A stretch of 32,481 nucleotides of DNA from Chlamydiota bacterium (GTDB lineage Bacteria > Chlamydiota > Chlamydiia > Chlamydiales > JAJFMI01), in contig JAJFMI010000007.1 of assembly GCA_021772235.1 (NCBI GenBank), forward strand, positions 1-32,481, in the 5' to 3' direction. Shown here one piece after another: positions 24,766-29,297 of this stretch (positions are counted from its first letter, which is position 1; the number at the start of each line of letters is the position of its first letter). Both the position numbers and the translations under genes were made by a program. The notes below the pieces were generated by a model, which saw nothing but the letters and a program-made list of their open reading frames with translations, ran no database searches and had not been told where the DNA came from.

Positions 24766-26482
24766 GATTGTTCAAGAGCGCGCTAGCTGCGCGATCCAAA
24801 AAGTATTTCCCGACAAAATAGAGCCTGCGCAGGTTACGCCCAGTACGCAGGGGCATTTTGGTCACTACCAGTGCAATGACGCTTTGCGTTTAGCAAAACT
24901 GAAGCGCCAAAATCCTCGAGAGGTTGCGGCCAAAATCATTGAACATTTTCCGAACGACGACGAATTTGCCGTTAAAATGGAAATTGCCGGTCCTGGTTTC
25001 ATTAATATTTTTCTCAATCCAAAAGTCTTAAGCGAAAGAGCGAATCAACTTCTTGCCGATCCACGTCTTGGAGTGCCCAAGCTGGCAAAGCCAAAGCGCA
25101 TGATTGTCGAGTTTTCCTCTCCCAATATTGCAAAAGAGTTGCATGTGGGCCATTTACGATCGACGATCATTGGCGATGCGCTCGCGCGTTTGATGGAATT
25201 TCTCGGGCATGATGTTTTGCGTCTCAATCACATTGGCGATTGGGGTACTAATTTTGGCATGCTAATTTCTTAATTAAAATAGTGGAAGCCATAATTAATT
25301 TCTGGTAGAAAAAAAGCGACCCTAAAAGAGCTGATGGAGTGGTACCGCGATTCGAAAAAGGTTTTTGATGAAGATCCTGCATTTAAGAAGCGCGCTCAAG
25401 AAGAGGTGGTGCGTTTGCAGAGTGGTGATGAAGAATCTTTATCTGCTTGGAAACAAATCTGTGAAATCTCTCGCGTCGCCTTTAAGGAAATTTACGGTCT
25501 GCTCGATGTAAAACTCGAAGAGCGCGGTGAATCGTTTTACAATCCTTTTCTCCCAGAAATTGTCGAAGATTTGGAGAAGAAAAAACTCATCACGCTTTCT
25601 GATGGGGCCAAGTGCGTTTTTCTCGATGGCTTTGTTAATAAGCAAGGCGATCCACTGCCGATGATTGTGCAAAAATCCGATGGTGGTTTCAATTATTCCA
25701 CAACGGATATGGCAGGGATGCGCCATCGCATTGAAAAAGAAAAAGCGGAACGCATTGTTGTTGTGACCGACGCTGGGCAGAGTTTGCACTTTCAAATGAT
25801 CGCCGCGGCATGCAATAAAGCGGGTTACCTCGATCCGAAGAAAACGCAATTTGATCACGTGCCATTTGGTGTAGTCTTAAACACTTCTGGTAAAAAGTTC
25901 AAAACGCGCGAGGGCTCGACAGAGCCGCTCGTTTCTCTTTTGCAAGAGGGAATTGATCATGCGAAAAAACTCCTCTCAGAGCGCCTGCACAACGATCCTG
26001 AGCTAGATGAGCTAGCGACTATTTTAGGAATTGATTCGATTAAATATGCCGATCTTTCCTGCCATCGTATCAAAGATTACGTCTTTAGCTACGATCGTAT
26101 GTTAAAATTTGAAGGGAACACAGCTGCGTACCTTCTTTATTCCTTTGTGCGTATTCAAGGGATCAAGCGCAAAGTGGGCAAAGATTTGGATGAAGTGGTA
26201 GAGGTTGCCAAAATCACTCTCGAGCATCCCAGTGAAATTACTCTTGGGTTAAAGCTTTCTCAATTTGGTGAAACGCTAAAACTCATGGAGCGCGATCTTC
26301 TCCCTAATCGTCTGACGGATTATCTCTACAACTTAGCGGAAAGCTTTCACGCTTTTTTCCGCGACTGTCGCGTGGAAGGGGAAGCCCAAGAAAACTCGCG
26401 TCTGTTGCTTTGCGAAGCAACCGCCCGTATTCTGGAAAAAGGTTTTTTTATTCTCGGATTAAAAACTTTAGACAGAATGTAG
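24722..26482 (+). pseudogene. argS: Arginyl-tRNA synthetase interrupted by three in-frame stop codons (TAA 25271-25273, TAG 25280-25282, TAA 25292-25294); otherwise full length with no frameshift
   Basis: ORFs 24722..25273 and 25334..26482 are in the same frame. The N-terminal part has [19 protein letters not shown] (HIGH) and [14 protein letters not shown]. The C-terminal part resumes colinearly (LMEWYRDSKKVFDEDPAFKKRAQEEVVRLQSGDE ... FKTREGS ... DALR-type anticodon-binding domain, ending LGLKTLDRM). The gap reads S*LK*WKP*LISGRKKATLKE and keeps the length expected from other ArgRS. Confidence 0.85.
26341..26482 (+). repeat. Copy A (in-gene) of the argS 3'-terminal repeat, encoding SFHAFFRDCRVEGEAQENSRLLLCEATARILEKGFFILGLKTLDRM*
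   Basis: Aligned by hand to 27432-27570 and 29181-29297. Confidence 0.9.
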
Positions 26483-27316
26483 GAAAGATGCCCACTTGTC
26501 GTATGGTTTATGAGATATTCGGCGAACTTCCATCCCATTTTCACTGTAAAGTGCATTTTCGTACATGATGGCTTTCATTTCCTCGAGATTATTCATCTGG
26601 TCAAGATAGGTGAGATGTTGAAAAGCGGGGGGTAATTTATTTCTATCAAAAGTGTGAGTCAACTCATGAAGCAAAACCATTTTTGGATCAATAGGGGAAG
26701 GTGCGATGGTTCCTTGGCTATTGAGACTGGTGATTTCCATGTTGTATTCATTTTTAATGTATATTTCAGATCTATTTATATCGAAATATTTAATTATCGA
26801 ACAATCACGGTTAATTATTAATGTTATCGGGTACAACAGAAAAAACAAATAAACCTTAACAAGAAAATCAAAAAAATCTTTAATCGATAAATCTGTCGTT
26901 TTACAACGAGCTTTTTCTGCACTTATTTTAATATAAATTTTTGAGTTGGCTTTGATTGCTCTGGAAATTACATAGTATCCGGTTTTTGTTTGAGCTAATT
27001 CGCTAAGAAATTTCAATGGTTCTTCAGCGGTGCTATCAAATCTAATAGAGGTTTTGCCTTCAGAAATACGATTAATGAGGGTGTCTATGTCTTCAGTGGT
27101 TGGTTGTTTTAGAGAGCCTAAAAAGGTATTTATTCCATCTTCAATTTCCTTTCTGTAGGTGGTAGCGTGTTTTGTAAAATACTGAGGGCTTGATTTAACG
27201 GACGAGAAAATGTTCAGATGAACAAAATCCTCGACAAGTTCTTCTATTCCATCCTCTCTATGGGAGGAAAGTTGAAGGGGGTGGTTAGGTTGAATATAAT
27301 AATCTTGTATAAACAT
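26468..27316 (-). CDS. Hypothetical HExxH zinc-metalloprotease-like protein (secreted-effector candidate, possibly M91/NleD-like)
   Basis: The motif is MVLLHELTHTF, with Glu-rich NNLEEMKAIMYEN about 28 aa downstream (gluzincin-like spacing). The gene is visibly AT-rich. The start is taken at Met 27316 (MFIQDYY); the track ORF starts at 27355. The 3' end overlaps argS by 15 nt. The family call is from memory and unverified. Confidence 0.5.
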   Translation of the reverse strand: MFIQDYYIQPNHPLQLSSHREDGIEELVEDFVHLNIFSSVKSSPQYFTKHATTYRKEIEDGINTFLGSLKQPTTEDIDTLINRISEGKTSIRFDSTAEEPLKFLSELAQTKTGYYVISRAIKANSKIYIKISAEKARCKTTDLSIKDFFDFLVKVYLFFLLYPITLIINRDCSIIKYFDINRSEIYIKNEYNMEITSLNSQGTIAPSPIDPKMVLLHELTHTFDRNKLPPAFQHLTYLDQMNNLEEMKAIMYENALYSENGMEVRRISHKPYDKWASFLHSV

Positions 27317-27431
27317 GTTAATAACTATTATAAATAAATATATAATTATCATCAACTAATATATTAAAATACTGGTTTTTAGTAACTTAAGTTTGTTTTG
27401 GGAGAATTAGGAATAAAAACCGTGTGGGCTT

Positions 27432-27570
27432 AAGCTTTCACGCGTTTTTCCGCGACTGTCGTGTGGAAGGGGAAGCTCAAGAAAACTCGCGTCTGCTTCT
27501 TTGCGTGGCGACTGCTCTCATTCTTGAAAAAGGTCTCTCTATTCTCGGTCTTAAGACGCTAAATCGCATG
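27432..27570 (+). repeat. Copy B of the argS 3'-terminal repeat (orphan fragment, no stop codon), encoding SFHAFFRDCRVEGEAQENSRLLLCVATALILEKGLSILGLKTLNRM
   Basis: About 80% nucleotide identity to copy A by hand count (~26 differences in 139 nt). The first ~60 nt are nearly identical. Most other differences are synonymous. Confidence 0.85.
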
Positions 27571-27589
27571 CAAATTTATGCCGAAAGCA

Positions 27590-28235: not shown

Positions 28236-28251
28236 GGAAATTGTTGGCTTT

Positions 28252-28776
28252 TTAAAAACCGAAGCCGTATTTCACAATCACTTCAGAAAAAGTAATCACT
28301 CTTCCATAACGGCTAACTGCACAAGGGCTGAACTGCACATTCCAAAATCTTCTTCTTCCCGCATCAGTCACAAACTGTTTTCCAATGCTAAGTTCTGGAG
28401 TCAATAGAAGGGCTCCTTTCATTTCAACGTCTGTATCTATGCCGGCACCTATTCCGCAATAGAGTTGGTCTTGTAGATTTGGGTTGAAATAATAGAGATA
28501 GGATGAGTTTCCCTTTATTCTAAAGTGATCGAAAACATATCTTGCTTGAACAGATAGATCGAGACCGTTGTGTCCTGATTGTGCTCGAAAACCGCCTCCT
28601 ATGCATGGGGCGATTGTAAGTTGAGAGAGTCCGGGAATTGAAACAAAGTTTGCCGTTCCACCGAGGCTTAAGTAAGCATATTTATCACTTGTGAAATTGC
28701 TTATGTTTTCGTCATCTGCTTTTAGTGTACTGAAGCTTGCTACAGCGAGTAGCGTTAGTGCTATTATTTTTTTCAC
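28252..28776 (-). CDS. Small outer-membrane beta-barrel-like protein, paralog 2 (more divergent, GTG start)
   Basis: 174 aa. The signal peptide is MKKIIALTLLAVASFSTLKA, with GGGAGA upstream of the GTG start. Family blocks shared with the paralogs are GFRAQSGHNGLD, LYYFNP, PELSIGKQFVTDAGRRRFW and a C-terminal YGFGF. Confidence 0.65.
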   Translation of the reverse strand: MKKIIALTLLAVASFSTLKADDENISNFTSDKYAYLSLGGTANFVSIPGLSQLTIAPCIGGGFRAQSGHNGLDLSVQARYVFDHFRIKGNSSYLYYFNPNLQDQLYCGIGAGIDTDVEMKGALLLTPELSIGKQFVTDAGRRRFWNVQFSPCAVSRYGRVITFSEVIVKYGFGF

Positions 28777-28848
28777 AAATTTTCTCCCAGTTTTCAGAAT
28801 TCTGGGCTTATTATCGAGAAATATTAAGATATTGTCAAATGTTGTATG

Positions 28849-29184
28849 TCAAAGTTGCTTTCGAATAATTCGATTGATCTCGCTAATCAGGTAGAAGGGA
28901 ATAGAAACAATTTTCTCTTCTTGGGAAAGAGGGGTTGTGGAAATACGGATGCCAAGAGGTGTGTTTTTTTCTTCCATGAAGATTTTGAGGGAACGTAAAT
29001 TGCCTGTTGCTCCTGCTTTGACTTCCATGGGTAAGATTTTTTGCCCGATTGTCCAGAGGTAGTCGACTTCGGCGCTGCTGCCAGTTTTTTCCCGTGACCA
29101 GAAATAGAGAGAAGGTGGTTCATGAGGACCGTTTAATGCGAGGAGTTCTTGGCCGACAAATTGTTCGGCAAGGGCGCCTTTGTC
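28849..29184 (-). pseudogene. C-terminal fragment (~110 codons) of a DUF4143-type AAA ATPase, truncated at its 5' side where it abuts argS repeat copy C
   Basis: DKGALAEQFVGQELLA...YFWSREKTGSSAEVDYLW...ILPMEVKAG resembles the DUF4143 C-terminal domain. The first 17 codons of the track ORF are antisense of the argS fragment. The ATPase domain is absent. Confidence 0.55.
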
Positions 29185-29297
29185 GTGTGGAAGGGGAGGC
29201 GCAAGAAAGTTCGCGTCTGCTTCTTTGTGAGGCAACGGCGCGCATTCTCGAAAAAGGCCTTTCTATTCTTGGTTTAAAGACGCTAGATCGAATGTAA
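29181..29297 (+). repeat. Copy C of the argS 3'-terminal repeat (5'-truncated, keeps a TAA stop), encoding CRVEGEAQESSRLLLCEATARILEKGLSILGLKTLDRM*
   Basis: Hand alignment. For example, ATARIL is encoded gcaaccgcccgtattctg in copy A and gcaacggcgcgcattctc in copy C; all five differences are synonymous. Confidence 0.85.

Follow-up and report, generated by a model that had tools for sequence, protein, structure and literature searches.

The prophage e14 carries its own integrase, uses a defined attachment core and can excise again, and its insertion at the icd gene was reportedly described by Hill et al. in 1989. At icd the inserted DNA supplies a new and mostly synonymously different 3′ end, and the old end persists downstream as a fragment, icdC (PMC13626634). 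Here we examine a locus in a chlamydial metagenome-assembled genome (MAG), on a single contig of 32,481 nucleotides (nt; JAJFMI010000007.1 of assembly GCA_021772235.1, hereafter the window), in which the 3′ end of argS, the gene for arginyl-tRNA synthetase (ArgRS), occurs three times, once within the gene (copy A) and twice farther downstream (copies B and C). An initial annotation of this DNA took the extra ends for traces of integrative cassettes that target the end of argS, and offered as an alternative that one-sided homologous recombination had brought in syntenic segments linked to argS from related strains. The alternative fits best: with a probability of about three in four, the extra argS ends are a side effect of two events of lateral import into a zone of variable content bounded by argS and a KamA/EpmB-like gene (kamA/epmB). 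The two fragments of about 1 kb, called insert 1 and insert 2, appear to have come from the same locus of more diverged relatives.

Insert 1, with copies A and B, resembles e14 and phage 21 at icd in that argS has a seemingly foreign 3′ end and the original end is left downstream in the same orientation. Unlike e14, the window has no recombinase, the cargo is one gene, the proximal block that is repeated consists of resident sequence in both places, and the second extra end, copy C, does not lie at the target gene.

The orphan tips of rhs and contact-dependent inhibition (CDI) genes form arrays by C-terminal displacement, and are said to have been described by Jackson et al. in 2009. For the orphan arrays of type VI secretion system (T6SS) effector-immunity genes in Vibrio cholerae and those of rhs loci, homology-facilitated illegitimate recombination is the route put forward (Kirchberger et al. 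2017, PMC5361080). Such arrays share with the window the successive import of homologous-plus-novel segments from other strains, a conserved upstream anchor, an illegitimate downstream join, displaced 3′ pieces, a mosaic layout and the lack of an integrase. They differ in what is diversified: in the arrays it is the variable tip of the displaced toxin gene itself, whereas the anchor in the window is a synthetase gene, essential and invariant, its end is a passive passenger, and the selected cargo would be the convergent neighbor.

Homology-facilitated illegitimate recombination (de Vries & Wackernagel 2002; Prudhomme et al. 2002, both as cited in PMC5361080) and transformation-generated merodiploids (PMC3784515) offer a further parallel. 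In the parts of these sources drawn on here, one junction is homologous and one is not, foreign DNA comes to lie beside the homologous position, and a partial duplication may result, as in the window. The experimental cases in the same parts concern naturally competent bacteria, however, and usually delete recipient DNA, whereas the joints in the window duplicate the anchor.

Chlamydial plasticity zones hold lineage-specific membrane- and effector-type genes between conserved genes, and these are exchanged by recombination of co-infecting strains. The short argS–epmB interval, which to our knowledge is not the classical plasticity zone, likewise holds lineage-specific genes of these types between conserved genes.

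Divergence of the three argS ends

A direct-repeat search returned one three-member family, at 26341-26479, 27432-27570 (81% identity) and 29156-29294 (70%); by alignment, genuine homology in the third member starts at 29181, not at 29156. The copies are:

Copy A: 26341-26482 (+), last 46 codons of argS, within the gene
Copy B: 27432-27573 (+), 1091 nt downstream of A
Copy C: 29181-29297 (+), 2815 nt downstream of A

With the peptide of copy A as query, tblastn recovered B at E=8e-24 and C at E=4e-19, far above chance, so that repeat search, alignment and tblastn agree on three same-strand argS 3′ ends, as first annotated. Pairwise, 16-22% of bases differ. Synonymous (Sd) and nonsynonymous (Nd) differences, and the proportions of synonymous (pS) and nonsynonymous (pN) sites affected, were obtained as Nei-Gojobori counts and compared by Fisher test:

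A-B: 26/138 bases differ, Sd/Nd 18/8, pS/pN 0.56/0.075, p = 1.7e-8
A-C: 23/114 bases differ, Sd/Nd 19/4, p = 2e-11
B-C: 18/114 bases differ, Sd/Nd 13/5, p = 6e-6

The ratio dN/dS (omega) was 0.03-0.09 in every pair. Had the copies diverged in place, omega would be at least 0.5, because at least one lineage of each pair would be dead DNA; omega = 0.5 was rejected at p = 0.001 (A-B), 2e-5 (A-C) and 0.007 (B-C). Three-way branch counts, in which two multi-step Leu codons were reclassified by hand, placed the longest private branch on the functional copy A (~13 synonymous and 2 replacement changes), with 9 changes on B and 6 on C, which is the reverse of what in-place decay predicts. The copies thus diverged inside functional argS genes of different lineages, in-place decay being formally rejected. 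That they differ mainly at synonymous sites would follow if, up to the time of transfer, purifying selection acted on the foreign argS ends in the donor genomes.

On these points the initial annotation holds up well. Its hand count of ~20% divergence with a synonymous bias agrees with the 16-22% and the B-C ratio of 13/5 found here; its placing of the divergence inside functional argS genes of different lineages is borne out by the omega values; and the formal test on a codon alignment, with which it had proposed to check this, departs from neutrality even against omega = 0.5. The differences between A and C in the ATARIL stretch are all silent, as it stated, but number four, and reach its five only with the preceding Glu codon.

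Copies A and B are not evenly diverged: they differ at 3/63 positions in the first 63 nt and at 23/75 in the last 75 nt (Fisher p = 7e-5), and their longest identical run is 18 nt. The units headed by B and C, spaced 1724 nt apart, have in common the argS end, a gene for a small putative outer-membrane protein (OMP) and ~60 nt upstream of that gene. The shared OMP gene and promoter region had already been pointed out and are confirmed.

Relatives with a single argS end

Among 80 chlamydial argS loci from a one-genome-per-species scan of GTDB and 80 from a metagenome scan, the former gave a single close relative (L001, 87%) and the latter no relative above 72% identity. L001, with 87% ArgRS identity to the window the nearest named genome, is Candidatus Algichlamydia australiensis, a Simkaniaceae symbiont of a dinoflagellate (PMC11317633). 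The useful relatives were obtained by a protein search and look-up of the contigs of its matches, which yielded closer ArgRS sequences (93-94% identity) on contigs L161-L163, L165, L166, L168 and L169. The window and its kin are Simkaniaceae-like environmental chlamydiae. The nearest sampled relative, L163 (GCA_054603195.1, a ChlgKO MAG), has ~91% DNA identity to the window, a pS of 0.17-0.33 in resident genes, and three collinear blocks:

Block 1: window 16489-26457, L163 (reverse complement) 1-9960, 90.4%
Block 2: window 27436-29180, L163 (reverse complement) 9848-11591, 91.2%
Block 3: window 30125-32481, L163 (reverse complement) 12558-14916, 91.6%

Gene orders around argS, with genes after argS on the opposite strand, are:

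L163: LeuDH and argS, then OMP1, OMP2, DUF4143 (intact, 441 amino acids), kinase, KamA, OMPx3, murA
L161, L165 and L166: argS, then OMP1, OMP2, kinase′, HExxH′, KamA
L168 and L169: argS, then an OMP1-type gene
L162: argS, then an OMP2-type gene
L001: argS, then HExxH, KamA, OMPx3, murA

L001 has one argS end, and so do L161, L162, L163, L165, L166, L168 and L169; wherever the full-length gene is visible (L161-L163, L165 and L166), ArgRS is intact at 586 amino acids. The empty sites suggested as a check, loci with a single argS end, are therefore found in L163, L161, L165 and L166. Beyond L163, an OMP1-type gene directly follows argS in five contigs (L161, L165, L166, L168 and L169) that represent three further lineages.

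These relatives identify copy B. The alignment of L161 begins exactly at 27432 and continues through the argS end, a 15-nt spacer, OMP1, its upstream region and OMP2 at ~90% identity; to the left of 27432, L161 continues as argS, and the window has the upstream region of an HExxH gene instead. Given the collinearity with L161 and L163, B is the original argS end of the resident, and OMP1, OMP2 and DUF4143 are resident genes. The ancestral order was argS followed by the opposed OMP1, OMP2, DUF4143, kinase and KamA, as still found in L163. The resident features of this zone are:

OMP1: 27590..28183 (-), resident small putative beta-barrel outer-membrane protein; L163 ortholog 92% amino-acid identity, pS 0.29
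OMP2: 28252..28776 (-), resident paralog; L163 ortholog 92% amino-acid identity
DUF4143 AAA-ATPase 3′ fragment: 28849..29180 (-), Pfam DUF4143, about codons 336-441; resident, cut by insert 2
DUF4143 first 9 codons (MEREIIKDL) and upstream region: 30126..30300 (-), resident; L163 homology resumes at 30125, 91.6%
Ser/Thr protein kinase: 30301..31281 (-), Pfam Pkinase; resident, 93% amino-acid identity to L163
KamA/EpmB-like radical-SAM gene: 31397..32344 (-), conserved right border of the variable zone

OMP1 and OMP2, together with OMP3 of insert 2, are paralogous small proteins that all have a signal peptide and, at the C-terminus, a YG(x)GF motif. Pfam and NCBIfam assigned no family to the OMPs or to the HExxH protein.

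The functional tail closest to B is that of L168, at 13/114 differences; the last 45 nt of B and the spacer match it except for the lost stop codon and one spacer base. In B the stop has changed from TAA to CAA (other tails have TAG or TAA), and the private replacements E25V and R29L fall at residues that do not vary among the eight functional tails. These changes fit a B that was displaced and has undergone a short period of neutral decay. Codons 22-30 of B (27496-27522) form a patch with 9 differences in 27 nt to L168, followed by 45 matching nt; both E25V and R29L lie in the patch, and its dense multi-base style resembles that of a patch with stop codons in argS (see below).

Insert 1: a replacement argS end and an HExxH gene

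Insert 1 probably spans ~26404-27431 (1028 nt). It holds a distal argS end of foreign origin, the HExxH gene and the 76 nt upstream of that gene. The features involved are:

argS (arginyl-tRNA synthetase): 24722..26482 (+), Pfam Arg_tRNA_synt_N, tRNA-synt_1d and DALR_1
Copy A, proximal 63 nt: 26341..26403 (+), resident argS sequence, duplicated at 27432-27494
Copy A, distal 25 codons and stop: 26404..26482 (+), putative foreign replacement end, left part of insert 1
HExxH gene: 26468..27355 (-), putative cargo of insert 1
HExxH upstream 76 nt: 27356..27431 (no strand), right end of insert 1

Up to about codon -25 (minus signs count codons back from the argS end), argS is resident and collinear with L163, within the 90.4% block. 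In the proximal 63 nt, A and B differ at 3 nt and each differs from L163 and L165 at 12-13 nt; since both carry the window lineage's own allele, this block is a piece of the resident's argS that has been duplicated. In its distal 75 nt, A is different in kind: these show 15-27 differences to every sampled tail (L162 lowest, 15/75) and 21-23 to B, L163 and L165, almost all synonymous and near synonymous saturation.

The left boundary of insert 1 would accordingly be a crossover in homologous argS sequence near codon -25, and the right boundary a non-homologous join to resident codon -46; alignment and inspection of the junction at 27431/27432 found it non-homologous. By this comparison argS now ends in foreign sequence, the distal part of A, followed by the imported HExxH gene, with 63 nt of resident argS duplicated and the old end, B, stranded before OMP1. 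In the donor, argS and HExxH must have been convergent neighbors, as they are in L001.

The HExxH gene is absent from the argS-adjacent position in L163, L161, L165 and L166. Homologs lie beside KamA in L165 (53% amino-acid identity) and beside argS in L001 (36%). One HExxH homolog matches Peptidase_M91 at E=0.009, a faint hint that the product may be an M91/NleD-like effector protease.

A sliding-window search of argS against L161, L163 and L165 found no sharp change of divergence upstream of the tail; the gene is uniformly ~14% diverged from L163, and its flanking genes ~9%. It has three in-frame stops within eight codons (TAA at 25271, TAG at 25280, TAA at 25292) and no frameshift. This stop cluster lies inside a dense patch (25250-25312, codons 177-196), with ~20 substitutions across 66 nt when compared with L163, L165 and L162, and the patch includes a change of Q to N in the conserved GDWGTQFG motif; outside it the gene is under strong constraint (omega ~0.03-0.07). 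A very recent pseudogene, an ArgRS split in two chains or a local sequence error are possible causes. If split, the chains would have 183 and 382 amino acids, the second starting at the ATG at 25334.

Insert 2: a remnant of the same gene string

Copy C consists of the last 38 codons and the stop of an argS, with 16-26 differences in 114 nt to each sampled functional tail, and is best understood as a foreign argS end that forms the left end of insert 2:

Insert 2: 29181-30125, putative foreign segment with argS end C, OMP3 and what is left of another OMP gene and another DUF4143 gene
OMP3: 29317..29907 (-), putative cargo of insert 2; diverged counterpart of OMP1
C-terminal remnant of a second, seemingly foreign OMP (KIERYAWIF): 29980..30006 (-), resembles the OMP C-termini RYGVGF and KYGFGF
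C-terminal remnant of a seemingly foreign DUF4143 allele (…YEEGVLSIP/FYPIGELNRLTCI*): 30055..30125 (-), right end of insert 2

OMP3 and OMP1 have 58% amino-acid identity, with 33% of bases different and a pS of 0.71, and the ~60 nt upstream of OMP3 are common to OMP1. A search of 5.8 billion proteins gave no closer homolog of OMP3. The DUF4143 remnant is 77% identical to a remnant in L165 and 59% to the resident copy, which compares with 98% between the resident and L163. A tblastn search for an OMP remnant in 29910-30300 found nothing; the remnants were recognized by eye and by comparison with L165. A stretch at 30258-30292, the third member of repeat family D5, was considered as a dead OMP start and rejected; it is conserved resident intergenic sequence in L163.

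Homology to L163 is lost at 29180 (DUF4143 about codon 336) and returns at 30125, nine codons into DUF4143, and ~966 nt of resident DUF4143 (codons about 10-335) are exchanged for ~944 nt. At the left junction, 29180/29181, DUF4143 codon 336 abuts argS codon -38 with no visible homology or microhomology. Near 30125, about codon 413 of the remnant allele is joined to resident codon 9 at a GAAGAA common to both alleles. Insert 2 thus lies inside resident DUF4143, with a blunt and illegitimate left joint. It is a diverged version of the gene string argS end-OMP-OMP-DUF4143, placed next to the resident string and since reduced to C, OMP3 and two short remnants. The truncated resident fragment of DUF4143 has 94% nt identity to the intact 441-amino-acid gene of L163, homology stopping at 29180, and is still open with an omega of 0.12 versus L163, which implies an event that is recent relative to the split from L163.

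Hairpin-plus-T-run matches at 27421-27444 and 30105-30125 (+) coincide with the right joints of inserts 1 and 2; the first is built from both sides of its joint and the second ends at its joint. They are two of five matches in a 4.2-kb scan, a total at chance level, and may be coincidence.

The argS–KamA junction across Chlamydiae

The conserved chlamydial order is LeuDH and argS, followed on the opposite strand by KamA and murA. KamA follows argS in 105/158 chlamydial loci, at ≤150 nt in 63, at 150-1000 nt in 13, and in 29 with 1-5.9 kb of assorted genes in between. The content of this junction thus varies among Chlamydiae.

When each locus was searched against itself for additional argS ends, two genuine cases besides the window came up, L046 and L060. 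In L046 (a Parachlamydiales MAG; 4173-6479), a single autotransporter gene separates argS from an orphan argS end, which still overlaps the next gene and differs from the gene's own end with a pS of 0.36 and a pN of 0.048 (p = 1e-6); it is most simply read as an independent case of a replacement end. In L060 (9100-11649) the unit argS end-OMP has been tandemly duplicated in place, and the orphan is neutral (Sd 2, Nd 10, pS 0.10, pN 0.16), a natural control for a dead fragment. An exact inverted copy of the argS end in L150 (1462-1761) is probably an assembly artefact. Left boundaries vary, being at codons -46 and -38 in the window and at -58/-52 and -36 in L046/L060.

Among close relatives the argS–KamA zone is itself a mosaic. 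In the zone of L165 (reverse complement, 11437-13514), the kinase is only 43% identical to that of the window, the HExxH homolog lies beside KamA, and the C-terminal remnant of DUF4143 is also present. L001 has a 32-codon N-terminal remnant of DUF4143 between HExxH and KamA (12230-12325). At the end of the window, a fourth OMP paralog is represented by its C-terminus (…IVYGWGF; 32347-32481, minus strand), which lies just upstream of KamA and corresponds to the three-OMP cluster between KamA and murA in L001, L163 and L165.

Discussion

The inserts appear to be foreign: they are absent from six related contigs, and their synonymous sites are saturated, compared with a pS of 0.17-0.33 in the flanks. 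The imports would have proceeded by an addition, guided by homology but in part illegitimate, of fragments that diverged relatives carried at this locus. As for the enzymology, either homology-facilitated illegitimate recombination or a template switch onto the foreign fragment and back could produce such joints. In both inserts the anchor is duplicated and not replaced, by 63 nt of argS in one and by the 3′ part of DUF4143 in the other. The position of the left boundaries may be a consequence of gene arrangement. In the window clade, the gene that converges on argS leaves only 15-20 nt between the two stop codons, so a short fragment with a complete downstream gene would almost always start in the last few dozen codons of argS; this tight convergence would explain the varied left boundaries with no attachment site required.

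Several observations weigh against this reading. No donor is among the sampled genomes, the nearest relatives of the cargo having 53-59% protein identity, so the foreign origin rests on divergence and absence in relatives. The 63-nt argS stretch and the 3′ part of DUF4143 are duplicated where the classical process usually deletes recipient DNA, which calls for a sister-copy or template-switch version of the mechanism; the near-identity of the 63-nt blocks could also stem from later gene conversion between A and B. Insert 2 admits two readings, as a direct replacement of 966 nt by 944 nt or as a larger addition trimmed by later deletions. The three in-frame stops make a working argS an assumption. 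Lastly, the window is a single MAG contig, whose junctions are known from the assembly alone.

Three further candidates were set aside. A Campbell-type insertion of a circular fragment predicts 63-nt copies from different parents, yet these are near-identical; it was ranked below a duplication of resident sequence, although later gene conversion could rescue it. A plasmid origin of the cargo found no match by tblastn against PLSDB. A terminator in the argS tail that serves the convergent gene, as a cause of retention, gave a scan at chance level.

The product of an open reading frame (ORF) at 7312-8163 (-) belongs to the Rpn family of recombination-promoting nucleases/putative transposases (Pfam PDDEXK_2, 3.8e-47; TIGR01784, 1.3e-37). 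Members of the family in E. coli raise the recombination of transferred DNA by a template-switch type of process that does not depend on RecA (PMC5350276). By analogy, the protein is a possible contributor to the illegitimate joints. A bolder proposal, which we regard as unlikely, makes the argS 3′ end/kamA-epmB junction a dedicated, integrase-independent site of gene capture, to which short foreign fragments with one surface or effector gene are added repeatedly; the candidate route would be nuclease-promoted template switching by the Rpn-family protein, with the anchor duplicated and not replaced. If true, it would explain the recurrence in two distant lineages (twice in the window and in L046), the shared topology of the inserts and the hairpins at the joints.

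The remaining explanations are taken in declining order of probability. Site-specific integrative cassettes at the argS 3′ end, on the model of e14 and phage 21 at icd and with an integrase lost or acting in trans, are improbable on the present evidence. They would account for the A/B outcome, which matches e14 at icd exactly (the gene has a foreign distal end and the old one lies downstream), for the near-identical block at the 5′ side of the repeat, and for the recurrence at the same gene end in the unrelated chlamydial MAG L046. However, Pfam scans of the ORFs of the region and of 20 further ORFs found no tyrosine or serine recombinase in the inserts or the 32-kb contig, and the cargo is one ordinary gene. 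The contig also has no tRNA gene, and its sole mobility-related Pfam match is the Rpn-family nuclease, 19 kb away. Both 63-nt copies are the resident allele instead of one host and one element version. The event boundaries (codons -46, -38, -58/-52 and -36) do not point to reuse of a single site, copy C lies not at argS but inside DUF4143 beside the truncated gene, and insert 2 holds remnants of a foreign chromosomal gene order and not element DNA.

The cassette interpretation of the initial annotation accordingly fares less well than its observations. It correctly noted that the 32-kb contig lacks an integrase, and it was right that the first ~60 nt of A and B are nearly identical (3/63), but with both copies being the resident allele these are no att-like core. 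Its view of the extra copies as displaced ends suits A and B, a replacement and displaced pair, and not C, which flanks a foreign fragment and sits 1.7 kb downstream of argS, inside resident DUF4143. The supposed second cassette (OMP1, OMP2 and DUF4143) turned out to be the resident ancestral order, collinear with L163 at 91%. With no recombinase, differing left boundaries, at least two plainly illegitimate junctions and no attachment core, the mechanism itself is not upheld.

Improbable too is an assembly chimera, in which the MAG contig would join the argS-downstream regions of several co-occurring strains. The window is indeed a metagenome-assembled contig of 32,481 nt, its truncated DUF4143 fragment shows no decay (omega 0.12), and the cluster of in-frame stops in argS is odd. 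On the other hand, the longest identical run between A and B, 18 nt, is too short for a k-mer misjoin, and the remaining junctions have no sequence in common. Copy B shows genuine orphan decay (the lost stop, E25V and R29L), insert 2 contains decayed remnants, and the flanks on every side belong to one lineage at 90-92% identity to L163.

It is very improbable that B and C are under selection as expressed small DALR-tail peptides, or within the ORFs 27424-27663 and 29049-29297. Both frames are open and replacements are rare, but B has lost its stop and gained radical private replacements, the ORF that contains C is antisense to the DUF4143 fragment, neither orphan occurs in the six related contigs, and promoter and terminator scans stayed at chance level. 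Hardly credible at all is an old tandem duplication, in place, of the argS-end/OMP unit, followed by insertion of other genes and slow divergence: B and C do share an argS end, an OMP and ~60 nt upstream at a spacing of 1724 nt, and L060 shows that in-place duplications occur at the argS end, but the B-C pair has a dN/dS of 0.09 (p = 6e-6) with omega of at least 0.5 rejected where the L060 control is neutral, the functional copy A has the longest branch, and L163 lacks the duplication although it is only ~9% diverged, compared with 33% of bases between OMP1 and OMP3 (pS 0.71, against 0.29 for OMP1 between the window and L163).

Read as by-products of lateral import, the argS scars are an ordinary, known kind of footprint of lateral transfer that is unusually well resolved. 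They provide a base-by-base record, complete with empty sites, of ~1 kb pieces of chromosomal DNA exchanged between Simkaniaceae-like chlamydiae and synonymously saturated lineages, a kind of exchange that is little documented in Simkaniaceae-like environmental chlamydiae. For chlamydiae it would most plausibly need co-infection of one host cell. Such exchange adds genes and does not amount to allele replacement alone: here the gain would be a small putative outer-membrane protein and a possible effector, the HExxH protein, which would diversify the host-facing repertoire. Stranded ends of essential genes act as built-in markers of these events, with dN/dS separating import (the window and L046) from an in-place duplicate (L060). 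The analysis also flags the argS–epmB junction as a variable zone in ~40% of the sampled chlamydial lineages.

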